Shown here piece by piece: positions 1 to 56,999 of a stretch of 64,000 nucleotides of DNA. A program made the translations under genes and the position numbers. The stretch spans positions 143,342 to 207,341 of the forward strand of contig NIVC01002068.1 in the NCBI GenBank assembly GCA_002269645.1, read 5' to 3'. The first letter of the stretch is position 1. The number at the start of each line of letters is the position of its first letter. The stretch is from Macrostomum lignano (lineage: Eukaryota). The notes under the pieces were generated by a model that worked only from the letters and a program-made list of their open reading frames with translations, did no database searches and was not told the DNA's origin.

Positions 1-465
1 ATCAAAGACGATCAAATGCTTTCTCCCCTTTTCTAGCTCATCTGGTTGGGGTAGAAGTTTGGTCTTTGGATCAGCCTGTGGATCTCCATAGGTGAACACT
101 TTAATGTTCTGCCATTTTTCATTGTCTTTGAGGTGCTTTGAATATTCAGCAGCTACAATTTCTGGGTTACTGGGAAGGCTCATTTGGTTATTAAAACATG
201 CAATAATGTCCTCTTTGTTCAGCTTGTTTTGAAACCCTGCAATCAACATTCTATACTCATCTTGATACAGTGTGGGAGAGTAGATGTGCAGAGTGTCATA
301 GTCGATAAAGCCAGGTCTAAGAAGCATGTTAAAGACTCTGAATGTTTTACCTGAACCTGATGAACCAACAACAATGCATCTGAAGTGACTCGGAATTGAC
401 TCGTGATGAGAAAACTTAATCTGATTACGCGTCCAGTGAGGATTGAAGTCGTTTGAAAAGTCCAT
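1..465 (-). CDS. A32/FtsK-like DNA packaging ATPase (N-terminal 155 aa; truncated by window edge, absent from ORF track)
   Basis: Manual translation from ATG at 465: MDFSNDFNPHWTRNQIKFSHHESIPSHFRCIVVGSSGSGKTFRVFNMLL...ELEKGRKHLIVFD. Walker A GSSGSGKT after a hydrophobic strand; Walker B HLIVFD at the window edge. Confidence 0.9.
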   Translation of the reverse strand, partial: MDFSNDFNPHWTRNQIKFSHHESIPSHFRCIVVGSSGSGKTFRVFNMLLRPGFIDYDTLHIYSPTLYQDEYRMLIAGFQNKLNKEDIIACFNNQMSLPSNPEIVAAEYSKHLKDNEKWQNIKVFTYGDPQADPKTKLLPQPDELEKGRKHLIVFD

Positions 466-497
466 TTTTTCTATGACAAAAATTAAATAATAAGTCA

Positions 498-645
498 TTT
501 AGATGTGTCATTTCGGGACTTGAATGTGTCGTTTTGGGACTTAGATGTGTCATTTTGGGACTTGGATGTGTCATTTTGGGACTTAGATGTGTCATTTTGG
601 AACTTAAATGTGTCATTTTGGGACTTAGATGTGTCATTTCGGGAC
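498..645 (+). repeat. 21-bp tandem repeat (AGATGTGTCATTTTGGGACTT, ~7 copies) in the viral intergenic region
   Basis: Read directly; it explains the spurious repetitive ORFs 425..691 and 534..1076. Confidence 0.9.
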
Positions 646-671
646 TAGTCTTGTACCCTCGGAAAGTACCT

Positions 672-1061
672 TTAGTCAAATTTGAAACCACTTCCTTTTT
701 TAATGCTTGCTCTCATCTTCTCATAGACTGCAGGGTCCACACTGTCTGGGTTTGGGGCCAGCGGGGCCAGCGGGGCCAGTGGAGGTTGAATCTCTTGTTT
801 AGGTGTTACAGTATCCTTTATCTTTTTGGCTGCTGTGGCTACACTGCCAGCCACTTCGGCAACGTTCTTGATGTTCTCTTTGTTCTCTCCAATGACCTTA
901 AAAATCTTAGCCCCCTGAGCGATCAAATCAGCAAGGCCATTCCCAGAGCGTTCTTTTCTTGGATAGTGGCCTGCAGGGAAAAGTCCAGATCCGCGTTTAA
1001 TGAGATTAAGTTCCTCTTTGTCATAGTATTTGTCAATGTCTTTTTCGAAAATAAGAGGCAT
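672..1061 (-). CDS. Small Polinton virion core / membrane-lytic candidate protein (129 aa) with GxG motifs
   Basis: Likely start is ATG 1061 (MPLIFEK...), preceded by the same AT motif as the neighbouring viral genes, not the longer 1184 start. Contains KRGSGL, RSGNGL, KKGSGF and an amphipathic LADLIAQGAKIFKVIG helix. Confidence 0.7.
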   Translation of the reverse strand: MPLIFEKDIDKYYDKEELNLIKRGSGLFPAGHYPRKERSGNGLADLIAQGAKIFKVIGENKENIKNVAEVAGSVATAAKKIKDTVTPKQEIQPPLAPLAPLAPNPDSVDPAVYEKMRASIKKGSGFKFD

Positions 1062-1077
1062 TTTTACTTGAAATAAA

Positions 1078-2324
1078 TTATTTTTTGTTGAACCGCGAAA
1101 GCAGAAGCTCTCTCGCCCTCTTATCGATGTATTTTCTCTCAAGCATTTTGTCCAGGATGTTGACAAATTCTTTTCTATTTTCATCTTTCATTCCGGTCTT
1201 TGCCGCTCCTAGAAGAACCGCTACTCGCTTGTAGATTTCAGAAATTCCTTTTCCAGTTGAGGGCGGTTGGTCTTGGGGTTGTGGAGTTGGTTGGGCTTGT
1301 AGCTGCTGGGGAGGTGATGCAAAAGACTGCTCACTTTCAGAGATGGAACTGTCATGTGGTGCCTGTCTTTGTTGAGGTGTGAAAACTCTTTGATTGATTC
1401 TTTCATTCGATCTGGAGAGTGTTGTTCTAAGCGTTGCCAGTCTGTTGGGTTTTGTTTCTTATATTCAGCTACTTTCAAAGGGTCTAACTGCTCGAGTTGA
1501 CTGAGTACTTGTTCTTCTGTGAAATGTTGCTGCTGTTGTGGCGGTCGTTGTTGTTGTTGTGGTTGCTGTTGCTGTTGTTCTAGATATTTCATCTGATCAA
1601 TGACTTCCCCCTGATCTGGCAAACCAAACCATTGTTTAAAGTGCTTGTACTTTTTGAATTTAGTCAGGTTGACACCGCCATTGTACATGTGTTTCAGAAC
1701 TTCTGGGACCTTTAGTATTTCTATATCTCTAGCAAGAGAAAAAGTCACTAGATCTCTGTAGTTCTTTAGCTGCTTGTCCGAGATTCTCTCTTGGTTCTTG
1801 GTCATAAAAGTCAGTAAGGCGTCTGTGAAAGGAATTTTCATAGCTTCTGAGCCTTTGACAACAGAAATATTTTCCTTATTTATGTCGATATAATATTCCA
1901 CTGGTTCATTATAAATGTTTTTTCTCCACATACTTATTCCAAATACATATTTCCCATCATGTTCGACACGCTCTACTGGTCCAAAAATGTTATCTGTCAC
2001 TTTTAGTTGCTGTTGTGGTTGTGATTGTTGTGGTTGTGATTGTTGTGGTTGCGGTTGTATCTGTCGTTGCGGTTGTATCTGTGGTGCTTCTGGAATTTTT
2101 CCCAAAGCCTTTTGCACCTGGGTTTCCTGTATGTCGTCGATAGTTTCTTTGACCTGATCAATATTTTTCTTAGCTTCTCCATACCCGGGTTTATGAAACT
2201 CTGTGGCTGCTTGGACAAACTCATTGTAGGATTGTTGCTCCTTATTTATTAGCCTGGTAACTCTCTTTTCTGCCTGCGCCAGCTTTTCTAGTTCAGATAT
2301 CTGCTGTGTACTTTTTCGCTTCAT
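1078..2324 (-). CDS. Conserved Polinton-type putative core protein, Q-rich, with a -1 frame break between ~1460 and ~1300
   Basis: Central DNIFGP...FTDALLTFMTKNQERISDKQLKNYRDLVTFS resembles the Polinton DxxFG...TxGLxELxxxKxP...DLxxYxxIL motif. The -1 frame, open from ~1460 to TAA at 1078-1080, encodes STGKGISEIYKRVAVLLGAAKTGMKDENRKEFVNILDKMLERKYIDKRARELLLSRFNKK, matching the typical Polinton C-terminal GxG...ELxxRLxLL...AG...EIxxILxxL helix pair. Confidence 0.7.
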
Positions 2325-2354
2325 TTCTTATTTTATTTTATTTTTAGTTAAAAA

Positions 2355-3650
2355 ATGAACGACCCACTGACACCAGTTTTCTACAAAATTAACAAGCCTA
2401 TTTTGAGTGATGATAGCACAATCAAAGCGACTCAGGTAAGAGTTCCCAGTCAGGAAAATCAGAATGAAACTAATCTTGGTCCTGGCCAAACACTGACATT
2501 TACATACAATGGATGTTCGTCTTTGGTCAGTGTCCACAGTCTAAGGAGCGGCTTCTATATGACGTTTCAATTCAAAACTAAAGGAGGCGCAGACGCCGCT
2601 CATGCTAATGATGATCTACACAATGCGGATGTCGCACTAACCAGTAATTTCTGGGCTTATATGTTCAAAGAGTTTAATGTGTCCAATGGAAGTACAGAGT
2701 TGGAAAGAATAGCAAACTTTGGTGTGGTCTATGATACCCAGTGCTTGATTGAGAACCCGGATTTTATTCAGATGGGGAGCGGTGCTGGATTCATCCCCAA
2801 TGAACAGACAGGAGATGAGAATGACCCTGGTTACAAAAAGAGAAAGGAGAGATACAACTATGCTCTTGCTGGTGAGAACGATGCTGCTAAGAATCCGCTG
2901 TTTAGGTCTGTAGATATTTTTGTACCTTTGAGGTTTATGAGTGGTTTCTGTAATAGTTTCAATCGGTTGACAAGCAACTTTAGCTACACATTTAGACTGA
3001 CTAGAGATGATCGGAACAGAGGAATTTGGTCGGGGGCCAATCATACATCGATGGAGATTAAGCTAACTGGTGTGGAGCTGTACTTAGAAATTATTGAGCC
3101 CAAGACTGCACTCAAAGCTGAATACTTGAAGGCGATTGAGAAAGACATTGATGTTGCTTATACAGCTTATATGTGCAGAGATGAGCGGAATGACGCAAGA
3201 CACAATATTTGCATTAAAGAAGGCTCCTGTAGCAATCCAAGGTACATTATTGTCACTATGAGGAATACAACTAATGTAGGTAGATATCTACATGGAAACA
3301 TTCGATCGATTCAACATGAGATCAGTGACAATTTATACCCTGCATTGCCACAAAATGGGAATTTCTCGGAGAACAAGATTAGTAAGTTTTACAATGAACT
3401 GTCGGACTTGGCTGTCAAAGAGAATAACGGTATTGTTTTGACAACCTTGCAGTATAAAAAACTATATCCAATATTTGGTGTTGATGTGACTGCTAGACAA
3501 ATGCCTACAGACAATAGCCCTGTTAACATTGTGACTAATATCGAGCGGAAAGAATTTGGTGCCGCAACGGCTGTTGATCTGTTTATTATCTATGCATTTG
3601 AGAGGAAGATCAAGGTCAATATGATCAATAACTCGTCTAGTAAAGTTTGA
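2355..3650 (+). CDS. Major capsid protein (double jelly-roll, Polinton/adintovirus hexon-like), 431 aa
   Basis: Intact beta-rich ORF of MCP size with Polinton MCP-like motifs: IFVPLRFMSGFCNSFNRL...FRLTR, PRYIIVTMR, LYPALPQNGNFSENKISKFYNEL, YPIFGVDVT. It lies directly upstream of the penton gene. Confidence 0.88.
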   Translation: MNDPLTPVFYKINKPILSDDSTIKATQVRVPSQENQNETNLGPGQTLTFTYNGCSSLVSVHSLRSGFYMTFQFKTKGGADAAHANDDLHNADVALTSNFWAYMFKEFNVSNGSTELERIANFGVVYDTQCLIENPDFIQMGSGAGFIPNEQTGDENDPGYKKRKERYNYALAGENDAAKNPLFRSVDIFVPLRFMSGFCNSFNRLTSNFSYTFRLTRDDRNRGIWSGANHTSMEIKLTGVELYLEIIEPKTALKAEYLKAIEKDIDVAYTAYMCRDERNDARHNICIKEGSCSNPRYIIVTMRNTTNVGRYLHGNIRSIQHEISDNLYPALPQNGNFSENKISKFYNELSDLAVKENNGIVLTTLQYKKLYPIFGVDVTARQMPTDNSPVNIVTNIERKEFGAATAVDLFIIYAFERKIKVNMINNSSSKV

Positions 3651-3672
3651 ATAATTTTTTTTCAATAAAAAA

Positions 3673-4530
3673 ATGGAAGCCATAGCCGAAAGACTGAACA
3701 ACATTGTTTCACACTCTAAGGAGAGCATTCCAATCACTGTAGCGGGTCGCATTACTGAGTCAAACGGAATCTTCATTCAAAAATTGGAGCAACCACTTCG
3801 TTTGGATCCCGAGGCGAATTACCACGTCTATCTCAATGATTTCACTGGGTGGTCAAATGTTCCCAATGTGACAGCGGAAAATAACAAGTTTTATTACAAA
3901 TGGAAGCGTACTACAACAGAGGTTGTGATATTTCCTGTCAGCACACAGAGCGTGGATACTTATAATTACTTCTTGGAGAACGTCTTCACTAAACGAAAGC
4001 ATTTTGAGATACCGGATGAAAGCAAACCAGAAAATAAACTGTTCCCTGTTAGATTAACTTATGATCTAACTGTCATGAGAGTTGTCTTGCAAGTTCATAA
4101 GGACGCAGAGGTAGAGTTTAAAGATGGCACTTGGTATCGCGAGTTGGGATTTGAAAAGAGAGTTTATGGTGGCGCCACAGACCAAAGCCCGCTGCAGGCG
4201 CCTGGCACTGTTGCTGTGTCCCGGCTAATATCCGGTATGTACTTGGCGCCAAATATCGCTGACATTGTCAAAGGTTTGAATATATTAATTCGCAGCAATC
4301 TGAGCCATGATTGGATATTCAAGGGCAAACGAAGCAACATACTTTTTAAAATTTCAAACTCTGTTGCTGGTGGCAAAATGCTTGTGCAAAAGCCAAACCC
4401 CGTGAAAAGAGTGATTCTGAGTAATAGAGAGATACATGAAATCATTCTGCAGTTTGAAACAGAGGATGGCGTTGGTGTCGATTTTAACGGGGAAGAGTTT
4501 GTGCTAACAATTATTATTGAGAGAATGTGA
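3673..4530 (+). CDS. Minor capsid protein (penton, single jelly-roll), 285 aa
   Basis: Motifs LEQPLRLDPEANYHVYLNDF, NVPNVTAENNKFYY, ILIRSNL, and C-terminal IHEIILQFETEDGVGVDFNGEEFVLTIII typical of Polinton pentons; 22 bp downstream of MCP. Confidence 0.88.
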   Translation: MEAIAERLNNIVSHSKESIPITVAGRITESNGIFIQKLEQPLRLDPEANYHVYLNDFTGWSNVPNVTAENNKFYYKWKRTTTEVVIFPVSTQSVDTYNYFLENVFTKRKHFEIPDESKPENKLFPVRLTYDLTVMRVVLQVHKDAEVEFKDGTWYRELGFEKRVYGGATDQSPLQAPGTVAVSRLISGMYLAPNIADIVKGLNILIRSNLSHDWIFKGKRSNILFKISNSVAGGKMLVQKPNPVKRVILSNREIHEIILQFETEDGVGVDFNGEEFVLTIIIERM

Positions 4531-4591
4531 GTCGTCTTCAGACTTGTAAAATTACGATATAAGCCGCCAGGTACAACCGTGTAGTTGGCTA

Positions 4592-4828
4592 CTACAACTG
4601 CCTTATAACTTCAGCAAAGTTATAATAGCTGTCAAAATTGTTAATGACTACTCCGTGTTTTTCAAACCAGTGAGATTTAAGTGCTTGATTAATATTAGGG
4701 ACATTGATATCAACGTCGGGCCAATATTTTCTCATGTATTCGCTGCATTCTAGTTTGCATTGGTACTTGGATTTGTACAATGGATGAGGCTGAGTATAAT
4801 AGGAACCTGGAGAGACAACTGGAAACAT
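4592..4828 (-). CDS. Small hypothetical viral protein (78 aa)
   Basis: ORF convergent with penton, preceded by the shared TAATTT..TCAATAAAAATG motif; no recognisable domain. Confidence 0.55.
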   Translation of the reverse strand: MFPVVSPGSYYTQPHPLYKSKYQCKLECSEYMRKYWPDVDINVPNINQALKSHWFEKHGVVINNFDSYYNFAEVIRQL

Positions 4829-5028
4829 TTTTATTGAGAAATTAATTTTTTTTCAAAGGGTAAGGACCCTGCGCTGATGATTTAAAGTATTTGGGATCTG
4901 GTAGCACGTTGCGAATTGAATGTGGGCCCCATGGGGAGAAGAATGCAGATTATTTTCTGATTGTTTCGAAGATGCTATGGGTGGATGTCAGTGTCAGTGA
5001 ACATAACAGGTATCAGTGGACACCTGCT

Positions 5029-5244
5029 CTGATTCTGTCAGGGATAATATGGATGGATTTAATGGGATTATGGAGGACGTTTTGTGAGCGAGTGCGACCC
5101 CCCTTTTTTTCTGATTCTGTCGGGGATAATATGGATGGATTTAGGTGGATTATGGAGGACGTTTTGTGAACGAGTGCGACCCCCCTTTTTTTCTGATTCT
5201 GTCGGGGATAATATGGATGGATTTAGGTGGATTATGGAGGACGT
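5029..5244 (+). repeat. 82-bp direct repeats (~2.6 copies) in the subterminal / probable TIR region of the Polinton
   Basis: Units start at 5029, 5111 and 5193 (CTGATTCTGTCGGGGATAATATGGATGGATTTAGGTGGATTATGGAGGACG...). Confidence 0.9.
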
Positions 5245-5976
5245 GAAAAATTTTGTCCCAAAAGCCCCCTCATGCCTTCTACTCCCCTCAGACAAACCCC
5301 CCTCAGGCGCAATGTACATGTACAAATTAATCGATAAAATAAGAGTATCGTGCCAGAATACCATAACGTCAATACATGTACATAGATGCATGGAACTACT
5401 TTACGAGAAATAATACACAATGCATGAAATACAATTAATGAAATAAATACATACGAGGCTACAAAAACAAAGTATTCAACAGTAACGTAAGCGCAATAAT
5501 AATACGTATAGATTGTTGTTACAATGAAAGAAAGAATACAAGTGGTACGGTGTGCATGCGAGATAATCGAAATACGATACATATGCTTTCTACGAATTAC
5601 ACTGTCACACATATACTACTGGACTTTTAGACACAACATGATCAAAACAGCTTTACGGCGTATCAAGATTAGGCTTGTATTCTTTTCAACAAAACTTTGA
5701 TCGCATCTGATTGTCCTTTCGTGCAGGTTTATAATTATTGCATACATAAAAAACAGCCAAGTTTTTTACTCTTTCTTCACTTTTATGAAAAATATATTCA
5801 TAAGCGCTAGGGGCCTCATCGTGGTTCAAATCATCATGCTTGGCTTGGCCAGGCTTATTCAGTCAGCCAGGCTAAGTGGGCAGCAGCAGTGCATCGATCA
5901 ACCAAGCTCGCTCAAGGCCTCACTGTACCGCTAGACTACTGACTTAGGTAACACTGACAGCTTAACCAAAGCCGGC

Positions 5977-6141
5977 ATGCAGGAGATTATCACCATCCAC
6001 ATTGGTCAGTGCGGCGTCTGCGTCGGGCTCAAGTACTGGGAGAGCCTGGCCGACGAGCACGGCCTGGACTGTCAGGGCCAGTTTTTCGGCTCCAGCCCGT
6101 TGCAGCTTGAAAAGATCGGCGTGAACTTTGCGGAGTCGGGG
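5977..6141 (+). pseudogene. Divergent beta-like tubulin N-terminal fragment (~55 aa)
   Basis: MQEIITIHIGQCGVCVGLKYWESLADEHGLDCQGQFFGSSPLQLEKIGVNFAES aligns by eye with beta-tubulin [34 protein letters not shown]...LQLERINVYYNE. Similarity stops at ~6141 and no downstream tubulin exons were found in the window. Confidence 0.75.
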
Positions 6142-6145
6142 TCCA

Positions 6146-9100
6146 TGAGAAATGCCCGCAGACGAATTGCCTGCCGAGATTTGCCCACAGGAGATTTGCC
6201 CGTGGAGATTTGCCCGCCAAGCTTTATGTAGTCTCAGTGACAAGTACTTAAATAATAAATCAAGACACAACATCTTCCCCCTCTCTGAGAGGTTCACCAG
6301 CCGTAACGTTGCACCGGTCGCCACTGACGGTTCGAACGTCTCAGCGGTGGAGTCGCAGGTCCCGAGGCTGGTCCTAGTATTTGAACGTTGGTCTCTCCGC
6401 CGCATTGTGCAGGTTGTTGCCTTTGAATGTCCACGAGGGGGGGTCAAGCTCGTTTGGCCCTGGTGGCTCAGAATTCGGCCGCAAAGACGTTGGTACAAGC
6501 GCCTGCTGATTCCAGGTGCTGCCGTCCGTTAGTCTACACACGGTGTTCGTTCTCTTGACGATCTGTAGTGGTCCAGAAAGCCGCGTCCCCAGCTTTCCCT
6601 TTCGAACTGGACGATGCACTCGAACCCAGTCACCGGCGCACAATGTTGGTGGTCGCACCCCCGCCGCCGGTCGGTATAAGCTGCCGTTCGCTGCTGTCTC
6701 TCCTAAATTCGCTGGGCGATATCTGGTTGTGCCGCCGTGGTGTCCTTAAACGGGCCAGTAGAGACAGTGCAGTGCGCCAACGTCTTCTTAGCATCAGCTC
6801 CGCTGGACTCTTGCCAGTCAGGGCGTGCGGCGTACTGCGGTAGGTCTCAAGGAATTGCAACAGCGCGTCTTTCATTGGGACATTCTCTGCCCTGGCCGCT
6901 CGTATGCTGTCTACCAGAGTCCGGTTGAGCCTCTCCGTCTGGCCGTTCGTGCTCGGACGGTACGGGCTGGTCTTCTGATGCTGGATGCCGCGCTCCCGCA
7001 GGAACCCCGTGAGCGCATTGCCGAACTGCGGTCCGTTGTCCGTGAGCACCGTCTTGCAGAGACCCCAGCGAGCGAACAGGCTGCGTAACACTTTGCAGAT
7101 CGTCTCGGTGGTGATGTTTGACGTTGCAAATACTTCCGGCCATTTACTATGCAGATCCGTAATGACCAAAAGGAATCGTGACGATGCTGGTGCTGCCTGT
7201 AGCTCACCCACGATGTCGATGGCGATCTGTGTCCACGGCCCATCTGGCCACCGCAGAGGCTGCAGAGGAGCCGGTCGCAATTTGAAATTCTTTTCTGCGG
7301 TCTCGCAGGCACTGCAGTTTCTGACAAACGTTTCGACGTCGAAGTCCATCTTTGGCCACCAGGCAAACTCGCGGAGCTGCTGCTTAGTACGAACCACACC
7401 GGATGTCCGGCGTGCGCCGATTCCAGTAGGTTACGCCGCAGCTGATGTGAATGACTGCTCGCTCTTGGAAAGCCAGGCAATGTGCCATCCTGCCAAACGC
7501 TGAGGTGCTCTCTGACTTTGAAGAACGGGTGCAACTCTGTATCCTTCGTTGAGCCCCAGTTGCCGCTAGTCACTCGCTTAATCACCTCGCGCAGAACCGT
7601 GTCCTCGGCCGTTGCTGTCGCTAGCTGGGTAGGTGTTACTACTCGGACTCGAGGCATCGCAGTGTCCGGTAGCTGTACGATATTCATGTCCGACCCACAG
7701 CTCCACATTGACAACATGTCGGCCACGAAGTTCCGATTGCCTGGCGGATATTTACGTGGAAATCGTACTGTTGAAATCTGTCACACCAGCCATGGATGCG
7801 CAGCGGCCGATGTCCCGTGCCGCTGGGTCCCAACAGTAGTTGACGTACCGCTTGATGGTCTGTTCGCAGCTCAAAGTGACGCCCATATAGGTAGTAGTGC
7901 CACTTCTCCATGGCCCACAGACTGGCCAATGCCTCCTGCTCATTTGCAGCGTATCGCTTCTCGGTGTCGGTCAAGGCTCGGGCGGCAAAGGCGATTGGAC
8001 GCTCGACGCCGTCTTGGATCTGGGACAGGTTTGCACCGAGAGACTCCGCACTGGCGTCGCTGGTGACAATCGTCTCGGCCTCTGGGTCAAAGTGCGCCAG
8101 GATTGGTGGATTACAGATTGCTGCTTTTAGCTCTTGGAACGCTCTTTCGCAGTCCGTCGACCACTCGAACTCCGCATCCCCCTTCAGTAGGGCCCTCAGA
8201 GGCGCTGTGACTTCAGCAAATTTGGGCACAAAGCGCATCAGGTAGTTTGCAGATCCTAGGAACGCCTGCAGCTCCAATTCCGGTTAGACGGTGAGCGCAA
8301 CTGGCTGAATGCCTTGGTCTGGGACTCTGAAGGTCGCATACCGTCGGCTGAGAAGATGAGGCCAAAAAATTCTACCTCCGTCTTGCGTAGCAGGCATTTG
8401 TCCTTATTGGCCGTTAGGCCAGCGTCGTTCATACGCCCTAATAGCGCTCGCAGTCTTGAATCATGTTCAGTCATGTTTGCTCCGAAAACAAAAAAATCGT
8501 CCAGAATATGTTCGACCCCATGAAGTCCGGCTACTAAGTCGTCCAACATCCTTTGGAAGGCTGCTGGCGCTGACGCTAAGCCGAAAGGCACTCTGCAATA
8601 CCGATACAACCCCAGGTGCGTGATGAATGCTGTCAAGTCACGCGATGCCTCATCCAACTGCATGTAGCCAGCTTTGAGATCGATCTTTGAAAATACGCGG
8701 CCACTTTCTGCCTTGATCTTTGCCGAAATCTCGTCCAGCTGAGGCATCGGATGTCGATCGATTACAAGCGACTTATTCAGCTCTCGCACGTCGATGCAGA
8801 TTCGAATGTTGCGTCTTTCTTGTTTGCGACAACCATGTTGGATATCCATGGGCTGGAGTTTATTCGTTCAATGCGGTCAAGTTCTCCATGCGGTCAAGTT
8901 CATTGCCTATTTTCTGTTGCTTTGCGAGGGGAAGGCGGCGCAGCGGCTGCTGCACTGGTAGCACAGCTGCATTTACTCTCGGCTTGTGCACCGCCCCTTT
9001 GCAGAGTCCGATTAGACCACTGAAAACCGCTGGGAACTCCTCCGCTATGTCTACACTGGCGATACTATTCTCAACCTCCGGAGGCTGCAGTTGTACCCGG

Positions 9101-11627: not shown

Positions 11628-14600
11628 CTGGAATGAAGAAATGGGGGGAATTTTGTAGTGCTCAACGAGTTCCGTAGGGTAAGGAATCTAAAGACACCAC
11701 TATAGAAAGGACTCTGAAGACACCACACTCTGAGAAGGATCTGAATACACCACTCTCGGGGAAGGACCCTGAAGACACCGCTCTCTCAGGAGGCTGAAGA
11801 CACCGCTTTCTGAGCAGGACTCTGAAGACAATACTCTGAGAGAAGGAACCGGAAGAAATCATTGTGGGAAGGACTTTGAGGACACCAATTTGGGAAGGGA
11901 GGACTCTGAACACAGCACTGTGGAAATGACTTTGAGGACACCAATGTGGGAAGGACCTGAAGATACCAATTCTCTGAGAAGGACCCTGAAGACACCACTG
12001 TGGGAAGGAATCTGAAGGCACAATTTTGAGGATTCTGAAAAATCCCACTGGGATGAAATAAGATCAGTAACTTCCCTCAGCGAAGAATCCCAACTTCAAT
12101 TAAGCCTTCCGGAATACATCTAGGGCAATAACGCCTATTAACTACCACGTATTAAGTTGTAATCAACAACCCCTTGAATCTCACTCAGCATGTCCAGGTA
12201 TTCCGGTCTTGGACCAGGTGCTCTCGCCGGCGAACCGACACTCGAGTCTGTATTCGCCTTTTCATCAATCGCCTTCATCGAGTGCATCTGGGCAGCTCCA
12301 TCAGCAGCAACTAGCGGTTGCGGGTCGTGAAGCTCAAACAGCATGATTGGTGCGTTATGCGTCAGCACCAGCAGGTCCCGACCATCTTCCCCAACCAAGC
12401 AGAGTCCGAAAGGATCCGACTCAAACAGGTAGTTTGCAACGCGGCGTCCATCACTGATTACATAGACCTGGAGTGCAGAAATTAAACGCAGTCATTGAGA
12501 AAAGGCATCTTTAGATCGGATTCTTATAAGCGTAAGCATTAAAAGATTTGCCATTCCCAATAACAATCGTTGCTAATCTCACCTGCAAGCCTCGAGGCGG
12601 AACAATTGCGAACATGTCCGAATTGTTCATGGATTCGTCATCGAATACGGCGAACTCCACCTCGTAGGCGGGAAAGTACACCTGGCCAACAAGCAGGCTG
12701 CAGTCTGGCGTGGCCTGCAGTCTAACAAAGTACAAGTCCTCGTCCTGGCTGAGACAGCGGATCACTTCGCCTTTCATGTAGTCCACAATTTGAAGCTTGT
12801 AGTTGACCAGGTGCTGGTTGTCGTGGAGGAAGGCCACTGCGGGTCCCATGTCGAACACTTTGCCGATGGAGTGCTGGAACTGCATCTCGCTGGTCGGAGT
12901 TCCTTTCTCCACGTCGCTGTAGTCGAGGCGCACAACCGCGCCGAGCCAAATCGGAGGAACTCCGACGCCGACGCGAATCTCCTCGGACGCTTTGAGGTGT
13001 TGGCTGAAGGCCAGGTTGAGCGTGCACTTCTCTGGCAGGAACTGAATGTCGACAAGGTCATTGCGATTATTCAATCGCTTTTTTAGAAACTTTTCTTCCT
13101 TCGCTTTCTTAGCCGCTTCCGTCAGCTCTTCTTCATCGCCTTTGGTTTCGGTTGAATTCTCTTCCCTGGTCTCCTGGTTTTCGGAAGGCTCCTTCGTCTC
13201 TTCCTTCTTGTCTTTCTTCCTCTTTTGCTTTTTACTGCCTTTCTTCTTAGATGTCGCCTTTAGACCGCCATAAATGACCTCTGAAAACTCTGAGAGCCTG
13301 TCTAGCTGAATCCACGCTGTGCAAACTCTCTTTGAAGCTGTACTGAACGTGGCACTTAAGTGAAATTAAGCACTGTCGAGATTCATCAAGAAATCCTAAT
13401 TCTAGAGAATTTGATCCATGCGAAATCGGAGTCTGGGCGAAGATGTTGTTCTTTGAGATACGCAGTGAAGCCTGTAGTTCCATTTCTTTGTCACTCGATT
13501 CGTTTTCTGCGTCGACGTGAAATTTGAACTCGACCCCTCCAACTGATTTGGACTTACGACTTTGAAGGAGTTCCTCCTTTGATGTGCTACCAAAAACTTT
13601 TTCTACCAGCTGGTTGCTGATCACTGAGATGCCAACAGAAAAAGGAGCTTTCGGATCGCGGCGAAGCTCAATAATGGGAGGTTTATCCGACAGCCTGAGC
13701 GTCTCTACCTGATCGTCTTCTTTCGAGTCGCGTGAAGAGGACTTCTTAACCACCAGTGTCCGAGTGTTCAATGAAATCAGAGCCTCATTAGTGCGAATGT
13801 CAACCGTGTGACAATCGGTGAGCGCTGTCGCATTCTTACACGGCTTGAACTGAGTATACATTGGAAGCAGTGCATCCTCTTCGCTGTGGTGACTAAGCTT
13901 GTCGGTGAAGTGTTTCAAATTGTACACCTTAGTCATGATGAACATTCGCTCGTCAGAGTCGCCAGCAGACTCGTCAGGAAAATGGCAGATAGTGAAGAAG
14001 TCCGTGCCTTTCGGCTGGCCACAAAGAAAGCTTTCGGCCGTTCCCAGGGAGATTCCTTCCAAAAGTTCGCCAGTTTGCACGGACCACACAAGTAGAAGCA
14101 CCTTAGAACCAGACGTAACTAGCAGTCGCTCGTCTTCGGTAAATTTAGCCTGCGTTCCGTCACCAAAACTTGATGCAGCCTTTTTGAACTTGTCTTGCTC
14201 AGGTGATATTGTCATCCCAACAGCGCGCTTTTCGTCACAGTCATACAACAGACCGCGAAGAACGCTTGTTTGACCGTATAATCTGGACTTTCTCTTCAGA
14301 AGGAAAGTCATTCGACGACGACTTGGGCTTACGAAATTCTGACTGTACTTTATATCGAAGCTTTCCTGAAGGTCCACAATACAAATGGGCTTGAGGCTGT
14401 CAGAGATGGCGAATGTAACGAAAAAAGTACTGTCTTGCTTCCCACTGCCTTCTTCAGCAGATTTTGTTGCGTTTACAATAGCAACGATGTTTCCCTCATG
14501 ATCAATGAGACAGGAGCTAGCAGAAACTTCTTCAGCTTGCTGAAGTAACTCGATGGTCTTCGATTTCAAGTCGGCTTCACTCGCTGCCGGACTTTCGTCC

Positions 14601-17600
14601 GCTTTTGTCTTCTCGTCATTTTCATCCGGTGTCTTTTCTTCTTTCTTATTGTCAGGTTGCTTTAGTGGTGAGTGGCGCCACATGGACTCAAGTTCCGCTT
14701 TGTCAGCTGACTTGAAGATGTCAGGCAAAGAACCTCGAACGATCTCTTTCGTGTTTAAGTTCATGAACACGAGCAATGTTGAGTGGTTGCTGCCTGCCTC
14801 GATCCCAAAGCACAGCAAGTTGTTTTTGCTATCGAGGTTTTGGGTGCCGATTCTTGACGTTCCGCTTGTATTTTCTTCATAAAGCGCAACAAACTTCTTC
14901 TCTCCGAGTGACAGCAGTCTAAGAGTGCTTGTTCCCGTTGAGTCACTCTTTCCCTTGCAACAAAGCACATAGTCCTTTGTCACATATTCTACGTCATCAG
15001 ATGACACACTCCATGATGGGTCCAGAGTCATCAGTTTCGTCACCCTGCCGTTCATGAAGTCGACTCGAACGAGATCTTGCGACTTCTGCGCCTCTTCCTC
15101 TCCAGATATCATCTTCTTCATCATCCCGTCTACGTCCAGCTTCTCCATGATGCTGTCTGGAATCTCTCCAGCGTTGAGCGATTCCATCATGTCTCGCAGC
15201 TCTTGCGGCACATCCTTGTTGCACGCTTCGTATTCTTCGATCTCCTCTTGGATCTTCTTCCGACCCATGTTAAGGACAAGCGCCTGCATGTCGTCCTCGG
15301 TGACACCGGCATTCTTCGAGCGCATCGATAGCACGTGCATTACGCAGTCGCCTGGGATGTATCCAGTCGACATGTACTTCATGCTGAGGAACAGGTTGTA
15401 GTCGGAGCTGAACCGTTTGATCTCATTTCCCTCGATGTCGTACCAGGTGACTTCGTTGTTGATGAGTGAGAAGGACACCAGCTGACCGTTGGGCATGACC
15501 AGTCCCATTCCGAGTCCGAGATCAAAGCTGGAGTAGAGAACTCCAGACCCGGAGTCGAAGCACTGCACCTTCGGGATGAGGCAGCAGTTGCTGAGAGCCT
15601 GTTTCGACTGGCGACACTGGTTGAGCAGCAGCTTCACTCGAGGACAGTCCTTCTCGTACATGATGAGCCGACCGATGAGATCAACGCTCAGATTGACAGG
15701 GTCGTATACGAGACTCTGAGCGGAGAGTCGGATTGCATTGTACACGAGCTCGGCCTCTTTGATGTACTCGACACCGAGCTTCTGCGGGAGGTCGAGGTCT
15801 CTCAGCAGCAGGTACCGAGACGTGCCCTTCAGCTTGTTGAACATGAAGTCGTAGTCAAACACAATGTAGTCGTAGAACTCGTTCACTCGACCGGACTTGA
15901 TGAGGTGCCACGGCAGCTCGTTCAGCTTTCGCAGGTTGTACTGAGCAGTGCCGTCCTCATCTTTGCGGAGCACGAATGGCTGCTCGGGAACGGCTCGGTC
16001 CTCCATTGAGAACTCGGGCAGGTTCTGGAGTGAGAACGAATGCATGAACGGCTCAGTAAGTCGGTTCAGAGAACAGATCAATTTCAGTGCTCATCACTTA
16101 CGAGCTTCTTGCGCAGATAGGCTGGGTACACGAACTTCTTTCTCCTGCCGCTCCACAGACCCAAGAAGTAGTCTGCCATGATAGAGTGAATGTCCCGTCT
16201 GGTCTTTTCGTCCGACAAGAAGTACTCCTGAGCCACCTCGATGAACTGTCGGTGGTACCAGAACACTACCCGGATGTTGTCCGCCTCTCTCTCGACCAGG
16301 TAAGAGCCAATGTCGTGACGCAGTCGAGCCCAGCAGATCGGCGGGATGCGGATGAAGGGCGGCAGGTGATGCTGAAACACGTCAATGAGGACGGCGTCAT
16401 CCAGACTGAGCAGATCCTCCAGCTCCGACTCTGACAGTCCGTTTCTCGATGCAGTGATAAATGCCAGGGCGTGAGAGGTCTGGAAAAACAAATGAGCAGA
16501 GAGAGTCATTCTGACTAGAATAATCCAATCACTGTAGATAAGTGGATAGTTGTGGAATATTCTCACTAGCCTGGGCTACAGTAACTAACACGAACGAAAT
16601 ACTTACAAAAAGCCTGCCGTGCTTCAACTCGAGTTTCTCGAACAGCTGAAATATTGCCTGACGAACGGTGTAGCGCAGAGACGACTCATCTACCTGTTGG
16701 TAAGAGCGCCATCTCAGAACCTCGTGGTACAGCAGGTGAACATAGATTGGCAGTGAGCACTTGGAGAATGCCTGCTCGACCAGAGCCCATTGCTGCTCGT
16801 TCAGAGTGCGACCTTGTTCGCTGAGCAGAGCCGACAAAATGCTGGTGCACAGACTGGTCTCCAGTGGCGTCACCTCCACGTAGATGTCTGGGTTAGGCAG
16901 CTTCCCTTTGAATGTCTTCAGCAAATCGAACATGTTGGGCAGAGTGGACACAACCATCTTCACGTTGGCAGGCAATGGCGTCCGCACCCACGTCAGATGG
17001 TAGGCACCGTCAGAGCTGTCCAGCTGATCAACACTGTCAAGGAACACCAAGATTCTCCTGAACTGGCCCATGCGTTCGAGCATGGAGTAGAAGGTGTTCA
17101 AGATCTCCTTGAAGTCGTCGAGTGACTCGCACTTTTCCTGGTCGTCCTCGTTGCCGAACACAGCGAGCTGACGGCACAGATACTTGAGTGTCTGTCGAAT
17201 GCTCGACGTACCGGGACTGGTGCCGAGGAATCGCAACAGCACGATGGCATCTTTGGAATCGGACTCTGGCAACCAGCTTCGCACCAGACTGGCGGCCTTG
17301 CCAAGTAGAGAGGTCTTGCCGCTGCCCGAGTCGCCGTACACCACCAGAGGCTCCGTTGTGTTGCTCGCTTGCACATAAGCTTTCACCTTGTCGATGATCT
17401 CTTGCCGACCCTGGAACTTCTTCACGTAGTTGACGCATGCAGTCGAGTGCTGCAGCACCTCCGAGTAGAGGTCGTCCGATCGGAGCCGCATGCTCTCCCG
17501 CACGGATTCGGCCACGAGGCGCTTCACATTATCGCAGTAGTCGCTGCCAAACTTTTCCAGATAGTCTTTGTGGCTACTCATGCCCACACCCTCAGCGTCA

Positions 17601-18779
17601 TTGGTCCATTTTAGTGAGTAAGTGAAGGAATTGGATCCCGCCATTCGAGTCAGAACGTGTCTGTTCAACTCCTTGACCATCGCGTTCACAGCTTCATCAA
17701 GAACCTTTACTGCCTCGCCATCTTCGTTCAAAGAGTCGGTCAGGTCGATGAACTTGAACATCTTTCCTCGAGAGAAGTCGCGCTGAGACTCCAGATCAGA
17801 GAATTCTCTCACGAATGCGAGAGCCTGAGCCAACTTTTGCGGAGGTTTTGACAATATTCCGCTGATCACCTCCATCTCGGTGACAGACGCCGTGAACTTC
17901 TTCATTGTCGCGTGCGAGATCAAAGTCTTTTGAAGACACAACTCGGCACCTCTCTTCATGAGTCCGATGATGGAGTCTTGGACAGCTTCCCACCGCTGTC
18001 GAGCAGCTTTCAAGAGCTCCTTGTCCGCCTGGAACAATGAATTACGAGATTAGAGGTTATTAAATTTATCCTTTTGCAAACTCTGAAAAACAAGCGCTGC
18101 ATTAATCGTTAAAAATCACACTTACCGCCTCTGCTAGAGTTGCAATCGGTCTCAGCACGCAGATTGGTGGCTTGTTGTTCTCATCGATCGTGTACCACTC
18201 GTGTAGACACGAGACGTCGCGTCCGTCCTCCTTCAACGCTTCCACGATGTTGTTGAAAACGTCGACCTCGACAAGGGCTGCAGGCGGCTGGTTGCCATAG
18301 CGCTGACCCAGCAGACAGATGAAGTAGGGGCCGGCTGACATGATGAGCGAGTTGTCGATCTCTTGGTAGCACATGTACGGACCCTGGTGGTCGAGCTGTA
18401 CCTCGTCACCGACTCCCCATCGCATGTCGATGGTTTGAAACTCGAGTCCGAAGGAGTCGCGGCAGAACTTTTTCAGCCTTGGATTGACGTGCTGCATGAG
18501 GTAGTTGCGCTCCGTTCCCATGTCCGAGAAGGTGGACGACAGGAAGATGCGCACGACGCGGCTGTTCATGATCGGCAGGTCGTCCAGACGGCCTTTCATG
18601 ACTTTTAGGTAGACTGCTAATGGGTCAAACTCGGTGAGCGCTCCTATCATTTCCGAGTGTTTGGTCAGCCGTTTGTGCAGCGCAGGCCGCTTGGCTGACC
18701 GCACTGGCCGCGAGTGGCGGCTGTGAGCTGAGCCGATCCGTTCGGCCCCTCCCACATCGGAGGGCTCTCGTGAATTCAT
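11503..18779 (-). CDS. NACHT and WD-repeat-type (NWD1/NWD2-like) protein, ~2100 aa: DUF4062-like N-terminus, NACHT NTPase, helical region, divergent beta-propeller region, C-terminal Dpy-30 motif
   Basis: Predicted exons 18779-18126, 18028-16607, 16479-16102, 16024-12583 (frame break or unresolved small intron near 13370), 12467-12185, 11627-11503; all placed junctions are GT-AG with matching phases. Motifs [12 protein letters not shown]...TIDMRWGV; Walker [12 protein letters not shown]; Walker [10 protein letters not shown]; [27 protein letters not shown]; LVFWYHRQF-like; EDRAVPEQP...[13 protein letters not shown]. Confidence 0.85.
11690..12050 (+). repeat. Degenerate ~22-25-bp minisatellite (GGAAGGACTCTGAAGACACC core) in the last NWD-like intron
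   Basis: Recurring GGAAGGAC(T/C)CTGAAGA(C/T)AC units. Confidence 0.75.
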
Positions 18780-21700
18780 GCAAAGGTTTAGTAGCTGTTA
18801 TTGATTTTTAGATGGTAAAACAGAGGAATTAAAGAATTTTAAAATAGTTTGCCAATCTACGATGGAAATAAAGGTTCAAATGGTTTTCCAATTTTATAAG
18901 TCTAAAATATGTATTTTTACTAGGTTCACGAGTGGATTGCACAGTTCGAATGTTTGTTATTTGTATTAGCTATTAAAATTCTGTTTATCAGATACCTACT
19001 TAGATCCTATAAGGAAATTTTAGTTATCCATAGTAATTATCTAGATTAAATAGATTTATTATGGATGAGCTACTTTTTCTCGCAGCTCCAAGGAAGACAT
19101 TAAAAAATTATGCATTATATGTACTTAGTTAAATTGAAATTTGTCAAATAATATGATTTTTGTATTACCTGCTTATTATATCTAAATTTTATGTTTCAAG
19201 GCAAAAATCTATGGAATTGAAAAGGAAAAATTAGATTTTAAAAATATTTCTCTTAATTTATTTTCTCTTAATTTTTAAAAACAAAATATTGGTGTTGGAA
19301 TCTTTTGTAATTAACACGAGAATTTTAGTAAATGCTTTGGAACGAAAGTAAATTTTAGATAGTCTGGTCCCTTCTGTATTCGACTTTAAAAGCCAATAAA
19401 AATTTTCTGAGCACAATTTTTTGTGACAGTATAATTAAAATTAGTTAAAGTTAATTCTGGTTCTTTGAATTATGTCAATTGTTTTGTTGTACATAGATAA
19501 ACTGTTGCAGTAAAAAATATGAGTTAAATATGATTTAAATCGATTAAAGGCAAACTTTCAATACTTAAATTGATGTTTTTGTAAGAAGTAACAATATTCT
19601 TTTTTTAAGAAATAAGAAGAATTAGGAAGTGAGAAAAACTGCAATCTATAAATATGATAAGACTTCGTTGACCTCGATTACGACTTTACTTGGATTTCAA
19701 AATAGTAAACCTTCATGGTTACTTGTTGTCATTAGTTTTACAGGAGGTCTAAAAGATCGTTGTGAAAAAAAGTGTAATATTTATCTGCATTGCACTGTTA
19801 TTGAAATTTTTACTGTGGTTTCCCCATTATCAAACTAGTATTTTTGTTATAACTAAAACAAATGTTATTGCGTATTGAAAAACCCCTTTCCACAGATAAT
19901 AATGCTTTAATCAATACAATACTGCTGGACGGACAATACAATGCAATACTGGAGGACTTGTAGAACTCACAACATTAATAAAAAACTCAAATGATCAATA
20001 TTGGGCTTTTATTCTTTTCAACAAAAATTTGTTTGCATTTTGATGATTTTCACGTTATTGGCGTAGAGGCTATGACCCTTAGAAGGGCCGTTTTACGAGT
20101 TGTCGTAAGTCGTAGTCCCAAAATGAATCGAGTCAAGTCTTGAGAAGCGGATTGTGTAGCGGAGCACTTGGCGTACTAGGCAGGTAACTGCCGTAGTTGT
20201 TTTATTCTTGAGATCAATATTCAAATTGGTTAATGTTAATACAGAACTTATTGCGCTTTTGGGACACTGGCGGCTGCAATAATGGTTTTGAATTGAAGGT
20301 GAATTAGAAATTGTAGTCGAGTGGTAGGCGAGTGATGCAAGGCGATGCAACGTGGTGAGTAACGGCGATGAGCACAGCAATGGCGGATGCGTAGTGGTGA
20401 GATTGGCGTTAGCCGTGGCAGACAGTGGCAGGCAGTGTAAACAGGCTGGCCCAGACACAGGAGCCGTGGCGAGAGATAAGGAGGCAGACAGAAGGCAGGA
20501 GAAGGGGCAGAAATGAGGAGCCCGCCGCCAGGCGGGGGTTAATAAAGAGCGCAGAGGGCTAGCAAAATACACGCGGAGATTTTTCATTGGCTGGCGAGAG
20601 AACTTGAAATTATCGATCGTGCCAAAATTCACAGACGAGCGCAAGGCCTACCAAATACACAGTGAATTAGCAGTTGATACAGATTATTTGCACGCTACTA
20701 CAAGTAAACGTTAAAATAAACTATTGGAGAAATTAAAACGAGAAATTGCAAGGGAAACTATAGTCCAACGGCCCTTTTGCGGGACCACTTAAACTAGCAA
20801 CGTCACAATGATGTCATCTTTCATTCGGGCTTATATTTTTGCATGCAAGCAACCAGTTTTTAATCCTTTCTTCACTTTATGAAAAATTGTTAGGAATATA
20901 TTCAAACTCGCATTTTTCTTGCATTTTCATGCATGTATAAAACCTACTTTCACATACCACTTAATGCATTTAAAGAAGGCAGCTTATAGATGCGACTTTA
21001 CGTTAGTGATCAATTGTCAATCAATATATACATATATACATGTACAATAACAGTTAATTTTTCTCGCAGTATTTTGTTATTTGTTTATTTAGCTCATGGA
21101 TTTGGTTTTTTGCAGTAAAAGCTGAAACTATATGCCTTCTTGTTTGAAGTGTTTAGACTTTTATGCCGTGTTTTCACGTTCATCCGCGTAAATAAATTAT
21201 TTTCGCTTCGCAATTCGAAAAAAACAAATCGCTTAAAACAAGCACATTTTATTAACTTTATGATATGGTACCTGAGTGTCAGATCGGTGTGAAATATACA
21301 TGTAATCGCTATATGATTAAATAGATCACTAATCGATACTATCACTTGCCTTGTAGTACATGTAGTACATGTAATGGCCGCGCCCATATACTGTATGGCT
21401 ACGACTAGAGCCCTTGGCAATAGCGGCCTTTGTACTGGTGCCCACGGCGCTTTCCACGAAATCATAAATCAGCGTAACATGGCTCATCTGGCTTTGACAC
21501 CCATGCTAATTAAATGGCGCGTCACCTGCTGGGTCAAATCGTCGTCTCTATGATGGCTGCTACCAAGGAGAGAAATCCTGGAAATTTAACACAGAGCACA
21601 GGCTAAATTTTTCTACAGGGGTGCATCTTCATGTCGGAGCTATTATAGTGCCTCCACGTACAGTCAGTCAGCCTTAAATGCTTTCAACCCAAGAGTATCG

Positions 21701-54950: not shown

Positions 54951-55648
54951 GGCCTTTGACTTTGGCCATTTTAAAATATTGTTCAAAACGCGTCCGTGAA
55001 CGGACAGACAAAATCCGTCCGTGAACATTTGCTGTACTATCCAGGTTATTCATCTAATTACCTTCCCGAGACGAGGAGTGGACATTTAAGAGGGGTTCGA
55101 ATTCCTTGGGTTGGAAGACGTGGCGGAGTCGGTGAAGAGGAGTGGGACAGACAGGGGGAAAGTCTGTCTGAGTGGGTTCAGATAGAGCTTCATTGGGAGT
55201 CTGGTTTCGAATTTCAGTGGAGCAGTCAGTGGCTGCAGAAACGAAGTTGGATTTTTCTCTGCATTTTCCTCTCGCTGCTGAATCTCAGATTGCCAAGGAA
55301 ATCTTCTCGATTTTTTTAGTTTGTCTGATCGAGTTCTATTTGAGTAAACCAATCGAAAATATGTACTTCTTATTGCGCACTTTTATCGAACTATAGATGT
55401 TGACTGAACATTCGGTCAGAGGCTGAGGAGAGCCTCTTAAATAATAAGCTGGGTTTGTTGAGCATTTGTTGAGCAAGCTGGTCAAATCTAAACAGTTCAA
55501 AAGTTGTTTCATTTAGCAAAAAATCTAATTATACTACTTATTAAGTCAAAAGTTTAAAATCTATTGTGAAAAGAGTATAACTGCCTAATCTTTTAAATGC
55601 AGTCTATGCCTGACAAAGTGAAATTCGCCCGCATCCACCGCGCCGCAG

Positions 55649-56493
55649 GTTCATCGCAGTGACGCAGCCAATCAAGTACTCGAAGCACAAAAACTCGAAA
55701 CGGACGCGCTTCACCATCGCGGCCACCTGGCTCCTGTCCATCGCCATCGCCTTGCCGATCGGCTGCGGCCTGCAGAACCTCAACGGCATTCGCAACCGGC
55801 CCATGTTCAAGGACACGTGCACCTTTTTCCACGGAGACTTCCTGATCTACTCCAGCCTAGGCAGCTTCTACATCCCCTGCTTCGTCATGCTGGTGCTGTA
55901 CTACCGCATCTTCAAGGTCATCTGGCAGAGAGCCAGACGGGCCGCGGCGGGCAAGCGCGGCAAGATCTACCAGAACCAGAAGGTGGCCGCCGACGAGGAC
56001 AACGACACGGACGGGCTGGATCCGGGTGGCGCCAAGCAGTCGGCGGCGCCAGCCAAGAAGGCGCTGCTGCTGGTCCGCGCCAATCCGAAGCGGCCGAACA
56101 ACCTCAGCGTCAGCGTCAGCCGCGGCGAACCGCGTCGCAGCCCGTCCGGCGTCGTTGATCTTGAAGGCGACGACGATTTCACCTTGTCGACAAATAACTC
56201 GGCACCGCTAAACGAGAGCATGAACTTCGCCGGACCGTCGACCTCCGACAACAGCGGGGCCCAGAGCGACGCTTGCGAGACCCGCCTGACGGAGGGCCCG
56301 GCCGGCAAGAAGCAGCAGAAGCATCAGAAGCAGCAGAAGCAGCAGAAGCAGCAGCCGCAGCAGCAGCAGCCGCAGCAGCAGCTCTTCCGCATGAAGATCA
56401 AAAAGAAGAAGCGAAAGTCGGCCGGCACGAAGGCCGAGAGGTCGGCGGCGCGGTTGGAAAAGAAGGCAACAAAAACGCTGGCGATTGTGCTGG
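55649..56493 (+). CDS. DRD2: D2-like dopamine receptor, exon 3: ICL2, TM4, TM5, long ICL3, start of TM6
   Basis: GCCGCAG|G completes DRF; FIAVTQPIKY...TWLLSIAIALP...FLIYSSLGSFYIP (TM5 catechol-binding serines)...EKKATKTLAIVL(G)|GTGAGA, phase 1. Confidence 0.93.
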
Positions 56494-56999
56494 GTGAGAG
56501 AGCGGGCGGTTGCTGGGCGGGTGGCACCAGTAAGCCAGCTAACCGATTGCATTCCCCGATGAAGTGTATTAAAAAGGCGAATTCCGTGTCAACTTAGAGC
56601 TTACATGTACTGCTACAATGGAAACTGTCACGGGGCAGAGCAGCTCAGCTGAGAAGTGTCTGACTCTCGCCCCATGACCCTTGGCTTGATTTCGTTTGCG
56701 GCCGCATTCGTTTATGGCTCGTGGGCACGGAAGGGACACAGAGTGTACATGCCTGACGATTAGAGAGTCAAAGGGCTGCAGTACACCCTGTGTGAGCGTG
56801 TGTGAGTGCGTGCCTGCTTACAGTATTGGCGCGCTTGTATGTGCTCAGGACTCAGCGGAATGGGCTGAGTTGCCCCAGCGCTGGCTGAAGGACAATGTCG
56901 GCGAAGGCGTTGCGCCAGACAGCCCAGAATCATCCTGCAAAAGTTCATGTCTATTCAACATCTTGAAGCTGTCTTCAAAGATCCAAAGTGGAATTTTGT

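Follow-up and report, generated by a model that had tools for sequence, protein, structure and literature searches.

What is the block of capsid genes at the left edge of a 64,000-nucleotide stretch of the flatworm Macrostomum lignano genome (contig NIVC01002068.1; G000:C2068:143342-207341, hereafter the window), and how does the element that carries it spread? A sequence-only reading had taken window positions 1 to 5620 for a recently integrated Polinton/adintovirus-like virus. The block is the right arm (window 1-5283) of a complete Polinton/Maverick of 14,944 bp, the left part of which lies in the 10 kb adjoining the window on the left (labelled L011). The element is a recent insertion of a young family, which probably spread through a capsid-dependent, virus-like cycle with swapping of gene cassettes in co-occupied cells.

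Boundaries and age of the insertion

The element spans AGTAGA...TCTACT between two copies of CCCCTC. Its right boundary comprises the following features, including the terminal inverted repeat (TIR) and the target-site duplication (TSD):

4570..5283, no strand: right TIR, 714 bp, ending ...TCTACT; inverted match to the left TIR at L011:340-1052
5028..5244, no strand: 82-bp tandem repeat, 2.6 copies, within the right TIR
5284..5289 (+): 6-bp TSD CCCCTC, partner at L011:334-339, inside a 14-bp tandem repeat of the target
5290..5609, no strand: right part of an older dispersed repeat (~0.7 kb) outside the element, the target of the Polinton insertion

The two TIRs are 99.6% identical over 714 bp, with two mismatches and one gap. 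A counterpart locus (G000:C2705, L126-L127) lacks the Polinton. Its left side matches the Polinton-bearing locus at 98.6% over 8.3 kb and its right side at 98.5% over 4.7 kb; it shows no match to the element proteins, carries the older repeat uninterrupted and has two 14-bp units fewer at the target. The insertion is therefore younger than the split of these two locus versions. A second contig of the right flank (G000:C4056, L115) begins 16 bp beyond the right end of the element and matches the flank at 99.8%, a difference of the same order as that between the TIRs. The older repeat, in turn, has 37 of 40 scored matches at 79-86% identity, mostly stopping near 5609. The stretch is present in 20 of the 24 sequencing runs listed, all from one organism.

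The recent integration proposed earlier is borne out by the near-identical TIRs and the empty counterpart locus. The proposed extent, ending at 5620 behind subterminal repeats that close with ACTACT, is misplaced by 337 bp: the TIR stops at 5283, where the TSD begins. The 82-bp subterminal repeat is present, but the ACTACT at 5615-5620 lies just beyond the unrelated older repeat, and the 21-mer containing it has three genome occurrences, all at the window locus and its two counterparts. A TIR running inward from 5620 had been anticipated; it exists, with its right copy at 4570-5283. The polymerase, rve integrase and adenain-like protease looked for on the left are also found there, and together these features uphold the Polinton/adintovirus-like identity and the morphogenesis module.

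Capsid genes

The right arm carries the genes of the major capsid protein (MCP) and the penton, in uninterrupted frames, as had been read from the sequence:

2355..3650 (+): MCP, double jelly roll, 431 aa, minority capsid type A (PF21738)
3673..4530 (+): penton (minor capsid), 285 aa, jelly roll plus insertion domain, from predicted structure

The MCP passes PF21738 with 35.4 bits against a cut-off of 27, and the same domain is carried by all 14 database MCP homologs, the closest of which is unnamed and 76% identical. By profile, the MCP is a double-jelly-roll protein; its profile gave no match among PDB sequences, and a search of viral_contigs returned no relative of the MCP or of the polymerase. 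The penton has no match in a Pfam scan. Its AlphaFold2 model, built on a 136-sequence alignment (the query, 10 of 12 close matches and 125 distant ones, short fragments excluded), reaches a pLDDT of 92.9 and a pTM of 0.84, compared with a pLDDT of 31 from the single sequence. The best solved match of the model is the mavirus penton (Foldseek E 2.8e-9, TM 0.41; VIA-align Z 13.8, rmsd 7.6, 236 residues aligned). Foldseek also matches it to adenovirus pentons and, among predicted viral structures, to the pentons of Polinton-like viruses and MELD viruses and to adomavirus LO5. The predicted fold identifies the 285-aa protein as a penton, so that the jelly-roll folds suggested as a check are recovered for the MCP by profile and for the penton by model. 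Unnamed environmental relatives (P0001-P0011, P0015-P0026) are 41-76% identical in the MCP and 51-63% in the penton.

Packaging, replication and accessory genes

The other genes lie on both sides of the window edge. They include a protein-primed DNA polymerase (pPolB), a phospholipase A2 (PLA2) and further open reading frames (ORFs):

1..465 (-): 5' part of the packaging ATPase, A32/FtsK-HerA type; open from 498, likely start 465; 266 aa, continuing left
499..646, no strand: intergenic 21-bp tandem repeat, 7 copies
672..1061 (-): small protein, likely 129 aa; an earlier 170-aa ORF opened at 1184
1221..2324 (-): 367-aa ORF containing Gln/Pro-rich tracts; frame broken by one base near codon 308 (about 1400)
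L011:1652-2152: PLA2 (PF08398), with no pX match in the same ORF
L011:2183-3139: rve integrase (PF00665, 41.2 bits, cut-off 32.6), D-D-E motifs present
L011:3195-3569: pX-like ORF (PF05829), separate from PLA2
L011:5755-7029: pPolB (PF03175, 50.1 bits, cut-off 25.8), in three pieces in the window copy

Both Walker motifs attributed to the ATPase are real, but Walker B is split by the window edge: Walker A (GSSGSGKT) lies in the window, and LIVFDD is completed in the adjoining stretch. The window fragment matches Pox_A32 below the cut-off (E 0.0024); the 266-aa ATPase of a sister copy passes it (27.1 against 22.8 bits), and 266 aa is the commonest length, found in 18 of 44 copies. The likely start codons of the element genes follow A-rich tracts, mostly ending AAAAATG. 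Because of this context and the commonest lengths among copies, the starts at 1061 (129 aa) and 465 (ATPase) are the more likely ones. The 129-aa protein has no match in a Pfam scan and contains three G-x-G motifs (in 44, 42 and 27 of 44 copies), which we take to resemble protease cleavage sites; it may be a minor virion or core precursor. The 367-aa ORF has no Pfam match and no usable Atlas match. Its break is seen in 1 of 28 aligned copies, and its last ~59 residues are unlike those of most copies. The nearly intact virion module described earlier thus holds for the MCP and penton but not for this ORF, and the listed ORFs are separated by 173, 36, 30 and 22 bp instead of the 16-30 bp reported.

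In the left part, the PLA2 and pX-like genes flank the integrase and are encoded on different strands. The polymerase motifs of pPolB are present in 35 of 35 copies. Candidate OTU motifs accompany them (Cys in 35/35 copies, His in 34/35), for which Pfam gave no OTU match; Atlas matches (0.92-0.95) are to unnamed, mostly arthropod clusters. The adenain-like protease matches Peptidase_C5 with E 3.8e-4 and 20.6 bits, slightly under the cut-off of 21.3, and shows the His, Asp and Gln/Cys motifs. Two unassigned ORFs and the remainder of the ATPase gene complete L011.

Between the left TIR and PLA2, elements otherwise ~95% identical contain a variable slot with at least nine distinct proteins, 13-34% identical, in either orientation and with a common helical motif. 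Examples are as follows:

L029:7759-8580, L062:1366-2040, L034:1641-2321, L016:1494-2228, L036:1686-2306, L023:7598-8362: slot proteins

These proteins apparently form one family. A Pfam scan of them gave nothing above cut-off, and a profile search gave five database matches, all from Macrostomum lignano, one being 100% identical to a sister copy's protein and one bearing a Sigma70_r3-domain label. The window copy has a 60-bp tandem repeat in place of the protein. One further copy (L107-L109) has a 5-kb insert in the slot, with ORFs resembling a reverse transcriptase and a tyrosine recombinase, DIRS-like by eye.

A young family with defective derivatives

The 29-bp terminus has 440 exact occurrences in the genome (229 + 211; reversed control, 0), and about 200 elements is a fair figure for the family, given that some loci are assembled twice and that an exact 29-bp search misses inexact ends. 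The single element implied earlier is real, but it is one of these copies, among which the MCP distance is only 1-2%. The 53 copies examined comprise set A (the window copy and 20 of the top MCP matches), set B (10 of the 84% MCP matches, three of them chosen for having two close MCP genes) and set T (22 from the first 100 termini listed, one also chosen for its long polymerase frame). Perfect 6-bp TSDs flank 31 of the 39 two-ended copies, and 29 of these TSDs are distinct.

Several copies are rearranged. Palindromic elements of 11-13 kb (L056-L057, L054-L055, L101-L102) carry the capsid arm inverted at the left end, with arms of 4.7-4.9 kb that are 99.3-99.9% identical, and a perfect TSD; they lack the integrase and most or all of pPolB. 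One of these insertions has two assembled versions of identical layout (C276, C1652). In five other copies, part of the penton gene is inverted at the left end, forming shorter TIR extensions. Mini-elements are also found: L105 and L106 are one insertion assembled twice, with 716/640 bp of end sequence and a perfect TSD, and L104 is 3.6 kb long, with the MCP and penton alone and a perfect 6-bp TSD. Deleted, palindromic and mini copies would have been integrated by the enzymes of other copies.

Two further arrangements are seen among the copies. In L058-L059 the right end of one copy abuts codon 31 of the protease gene of another, an arrangement suggestive of a nested insertion. Beside two copies (L110-L111 and L022) there is pPolB-like sequence, 25-59% identical, belonging to a second, divergent Polinton family.

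Gene cassettes and their combinations

The capsid genes occur as two types, 21% apart in DNA for the MCP (84% protein identity) and 24% apart for the penton (80% protein identity). Within the penton, 20 of the 58 differences between types A and B fall in residues 161-190, which include the model's only low-confidence loop. MCP and penton types are fully linked (26/0/0/20), one patchwork copy excepted, and the window copy belongs to the rarer type (1 of 17 in set T). In trees of four copies with 13 MCP or 15 penton homologs, types A and B are sisters relative to outside homologs, forming their own clade with support of 100/100 for the MCP and 100/99 for the penton.

The ATPase and the small gene upstream of it make up another cassette of two types, which differ by 21% in the ATPase and 12% in the small gene and are linked 30/0/0/14. 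Capsid and ATPase types are unassociated (18/6/11/7, Fisher p 0.50; the cassette counts are slightly non-independent owing to duplicated loci), and all four combinations are found between matching TSDs. For the integrase, pPolB and protease, copies of unlike capsid type are just as far apart as copies of like type.

Constraint on the capsid genes

Among open-frame copies, the ratio of nonsynonymous to synonymous substitution rates (dN/dS) of the MCP is 0.15 and 0.11 within types and 0.09 between them, and that of the penton is 0.23-0.25 within types. Values for the 129-aa and 367-aa genes are 0.29 (19 open copies) and 0.38 (19 copies). Sets A and B were chosen on the MCP, and the corresponding polymorphism ratio (pN/pS) was recounted column by column in set T with broken copies included. 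For shared variants it is 0.05 in the MCP (16 copies), 0.26 in the penton (16), 0.10 in pPolB (15), 0.07 in the integrase (17) and 0.10 in the ATPase; for private variants it is 0.38, 0.48, 0.25, 0.36 and 0.17, in the same order. All values lie significantly below 1, including that for private MCP variants (p 7e-5). As copying inside the nucleus needs no capsid, this constraint speaks for recent spread in particles. PMC8097293 argues likewise for fish Mavericks, from selection on the capsid to reinfection.

Frame breaks and assembly

As assembled, the window copy is open in the MCP, penton, ATPase, 129-aa gene, protease, integrase and PLA2. Across copies, pPolB has 157 one-base deletions against 20 insertions, and 62 of the 109 deletion sites fall at most two columns from a polymorphism, against a background of 18.5% (p 5e-19). 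At the commonest sites, two alleles segregate in exactly the column from which the base is missing. Deletions at polymorphic columns are the pattern expected of a long-read consensus that mixes copies, and many of the frame breaks look like assembly artefacts. Stop-free pPolB frames of more than 1250 aa occur in 3 of 104 rows. Contigs of four runs differ from the window copy at all three of its pPolB breaks; the recurrent deletions are not listed in these four contig sets, which pool all copies and so cannot show absence. The contigs of one run extend over all 30 pPolB bins, but the run is only guessed to be RNA and is not counted as expression.

A programmed frameshift or a propagated defective allele was considered for the recurrent pPolB deletions and rejected, since carriers share no linked haplotype beyond the site and the sites coincide with single-nucleotide polymorphisms. 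In termini-picked copies the capsid genes have 13 breaks in 33 kb and pPolB has 92 in 57 kb. A special sparing of the capsid genes from frameshifts was likewise rejected: sets A and B are MCP-selected, and the leftover pPolB excess is largely artefact.

How the family may have spread

In the proposed cycle, protein-primed pPolB would make a linear DNA copy from the AGTAGA ends, as in Polinton and adenovirus biology, and the ATPase would pack it into a shell of MCP and penton. The protease would mature this shell by way of the pX-like and G-x-G precursors, PLA2 would assist entry, and the rve integrase would insert the element with a 6-bp duplication. Different copies meeting in one cell could then exchange gene cassettes. 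End-pairing of the displaced strand during strand-displacement replication is a likely route to TIRs of variable length and to the 4.8-kb palindromic arms, by analogy with terminal-repeat extension in adenoviruses. Like defective interfering genomes, copies that lack the integrase and polymerase would depend on helpers acting in trans to move.

Several observations weigh against this cycle. The window copy has six private one-base breaks: three in pPolB and one each in the 367-aa gene, in pX and in the gene that follows the protease. The suggestion that it may still form particles draws indirect support from purifying selection at the level of the family, not from this copy as assembled. In none of the 35 pPolB regions sampled does a frame run from ATG to stop over at least 1200 aa, and the MCP, penton, ATPase and protease are all open together in 9 of 38 copies and in 0 of 13 of the termini-picked set. 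The palindromes derive from just two independent insertions. Mantel linkage persists between the MCP and pPolB (r 0.22, p 0.002) and between the MCP and integrase (r 0.17, p 0.005), so that cassette exchange is not fully free. Eight of the 39 two-ended copies have no perfect TSD (one reaches the edge of the examined stretch, three are one base off, four are unmatched), the MCP of one copy is an A/B patchwork and some loci were assembled in duplicate, from which it follows that the assembly does mix copies. Capsids, moreover, act in trans where a cell has many copies, and the selection may reflect an infectious pool of earlier date, from which many copies were seeded, instead of spread within this host line.

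A rather unlikely explanation is that the family multiplied in the germ line as a self-synthesizing transposon with no particle stage, its capsid genes hitch-hiking under a constraint inherited from several earlier founder viruses. Most assembled copies are indeed broken, private variants are closer to neutrality than shared ones, and copies without integrase and polymerase, like the 0.6-3.6-kb mini-elements with perfect TSDs, need only trans-acting nuclear enzymes. Yet the MCP is as constrained as pPolB and the integrase, even in copies 1.5-2% apart, its private variants are still depleted of amino-acid changes, and the palindromic and short derivatives examined retain the capsid arm while losing the replication arm. 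Mixing of reads from near-identical copies during assembly could also have created the mosaic cassettes and palindromes of a truly simpler family. The pPolB deletions beside polymorphic columns do point to consensus mixing at the level of single bases, and the patchwork MCP and mismatched TSDs agree with it, but cassettes 12-24% apart form long clean blocks only about 2 kb from each other, the four combinations stand between matching TSDs and a palindromic insertion was assembled twice alike, which makes this explanation improbable. More improbable still is that the host keeps the elements as a defence and the capsid constraint reflects host benefit. The integrated virophage mavirus is described as protecting protists against giant viruses, and the flatworm derivatives keep and double the capsid arm, whose genes are broken less often than pPolB in termini-picked copies; nevertheless, a large share of the excess in pPolB is artefact at polymorphic columns, the insertions are young, with at least one missing from a counterpart locus, and a helper virus was neither searched for nor found.

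A stronger version of the virus-like cycle is conceivable and tentative: the Polinton would still circulate as a virus in the flatworm, its two capsid types, with their divergent penton loop, reassorting with two packaging cassettes, palindromic defective-interfering genomes being made and integrated, the hypervariable slot marking host or virus-virus conflict, and particles being catchable in untreated cultures. Maverick particles had not been observed as of 2021, according to PMC8097293, and a literature search for later work on Polinton virions gave nothing relevant, which does not prove that none exists. With about 200 copies, at least one site-polymorphic insertion and constrained capsids in an easily cultured animal, the particle question becomes testable purely by observation. 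The interest thus lies in the population rather than in the window copy: in its copy number, constrained capsids, exchange and defective palindromes. This population records Polinton replication, including TIR extension to 4.8 kb, trans-mobilised derivatives and cassette exchange. If the pattern of breaks at polymorphisms is general, errors of assembly may lie behind part of the claims, for other high-copy genomes, that every copy is defective.

Other features near the insertion

To the right of the element, a tubulin-like N-terminal fragment (window 5977-6125; PF00091 E 8e-7, below cut-off) breaks off beside a retrotransposon pol region (window 6630-8867, minus strand) with reverse transcriptase, RNase H and rve, in Gypsy-like order. 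Two similar DUF4062 + NACHT/STAND genes (window 13247-18797 and L012:2479-8521) flank the insertion region as a local tandem duplication. The segments at 32.7-35, 37.3-39.7, 42.3-45.3, 47.1-49.4 and 50.7-53.7 kb of the window are strongly skewed, with several frames open, and are probably simple repeats. A Rhodopsin-family G-protein-coupled receptor exon lies at window 55614-56597 (PF00001 E 7e-16).

Comparison with known systems

The element shows every Polinton/Maverick feature tested, namely long TIRs with AG-rich ends, a 6-bp TSD, pPolB, rve integrase, ATPase, protease, MCP and penton, the protease being just under its cut-off, the ATPase above it in a sister copy only and the MCP assigned by profile only. 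The lineage, earlier called possibly undescribed, is unnamed in the sources searched, which exclude Repbase and Dfam, and is not demonstrably undescribed. Literature searches gave no description of this Polinton family in Macrostomum lignano or flatworms and none of palindromic Polintons, and the first 4 million characters of the adintovirus supplement (PMC8502044) contain no flatworm term. Insertions related to Orthopolintovirales are reported in Rhabditophora in 10.1101/2025.04.19.649669, whose supplements may include this genome. The environmental relatives are short contigs without context or names, and types A and B form a clade of their own.

PMC8502044 allows a comparison with Alpha adintoviruses, which share the animal host, a PF03175-matching pPolB, adenain-like protease, integrase, FtsK-type ATPase, hexon, penton and PLA2. 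The PF03175 match makes pPolB a candidate for the Alpha class of polymerases, as opposed to the divergent Beta class. The candidate OTU Cys and His motifs of pPolB would be a further likeness; the viral OTU domain is described in 10.1101/2024.03.18.585575. According to PMC8502044, a parvovirus-type PLA2 is characteristic of Alpha adintovirus virion modules, where it is fused to a C-terminal pX (PLA2X). In the flatworm element PLA2 and pX are separate genes, and it is therefore not filed as an Alpha adintovirus. The penton fold is common to mavirus and adenoviruses, though penton identity is about 10%. Adenoviruses also share similarity in the pX-like protein and C5-like protease but have no integrase. 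Mavirus has an integrase in common with the flatworm element, which has no known helper giant virus, none having been searched for.

With the vertebrate Mavericks, as described in the parts of PMC8097293 used, the element has in common the gene set, TIRs, 6-bp TSD, a size of 15-16 kb, the AG-rich end motif and purifying selection on virion genes. Two co-existing capsid cassettes or palindromic derivatives are not found in those parts. The flatworm element differs in its gene order, in its PLA2 and pX-like genes and in its ends, AGTAGA instead of (AGT)2 or (AG)3. It differs also in number, with about 200 young copies in the flatworm against a median of 8 for vertebrate Mavericks.

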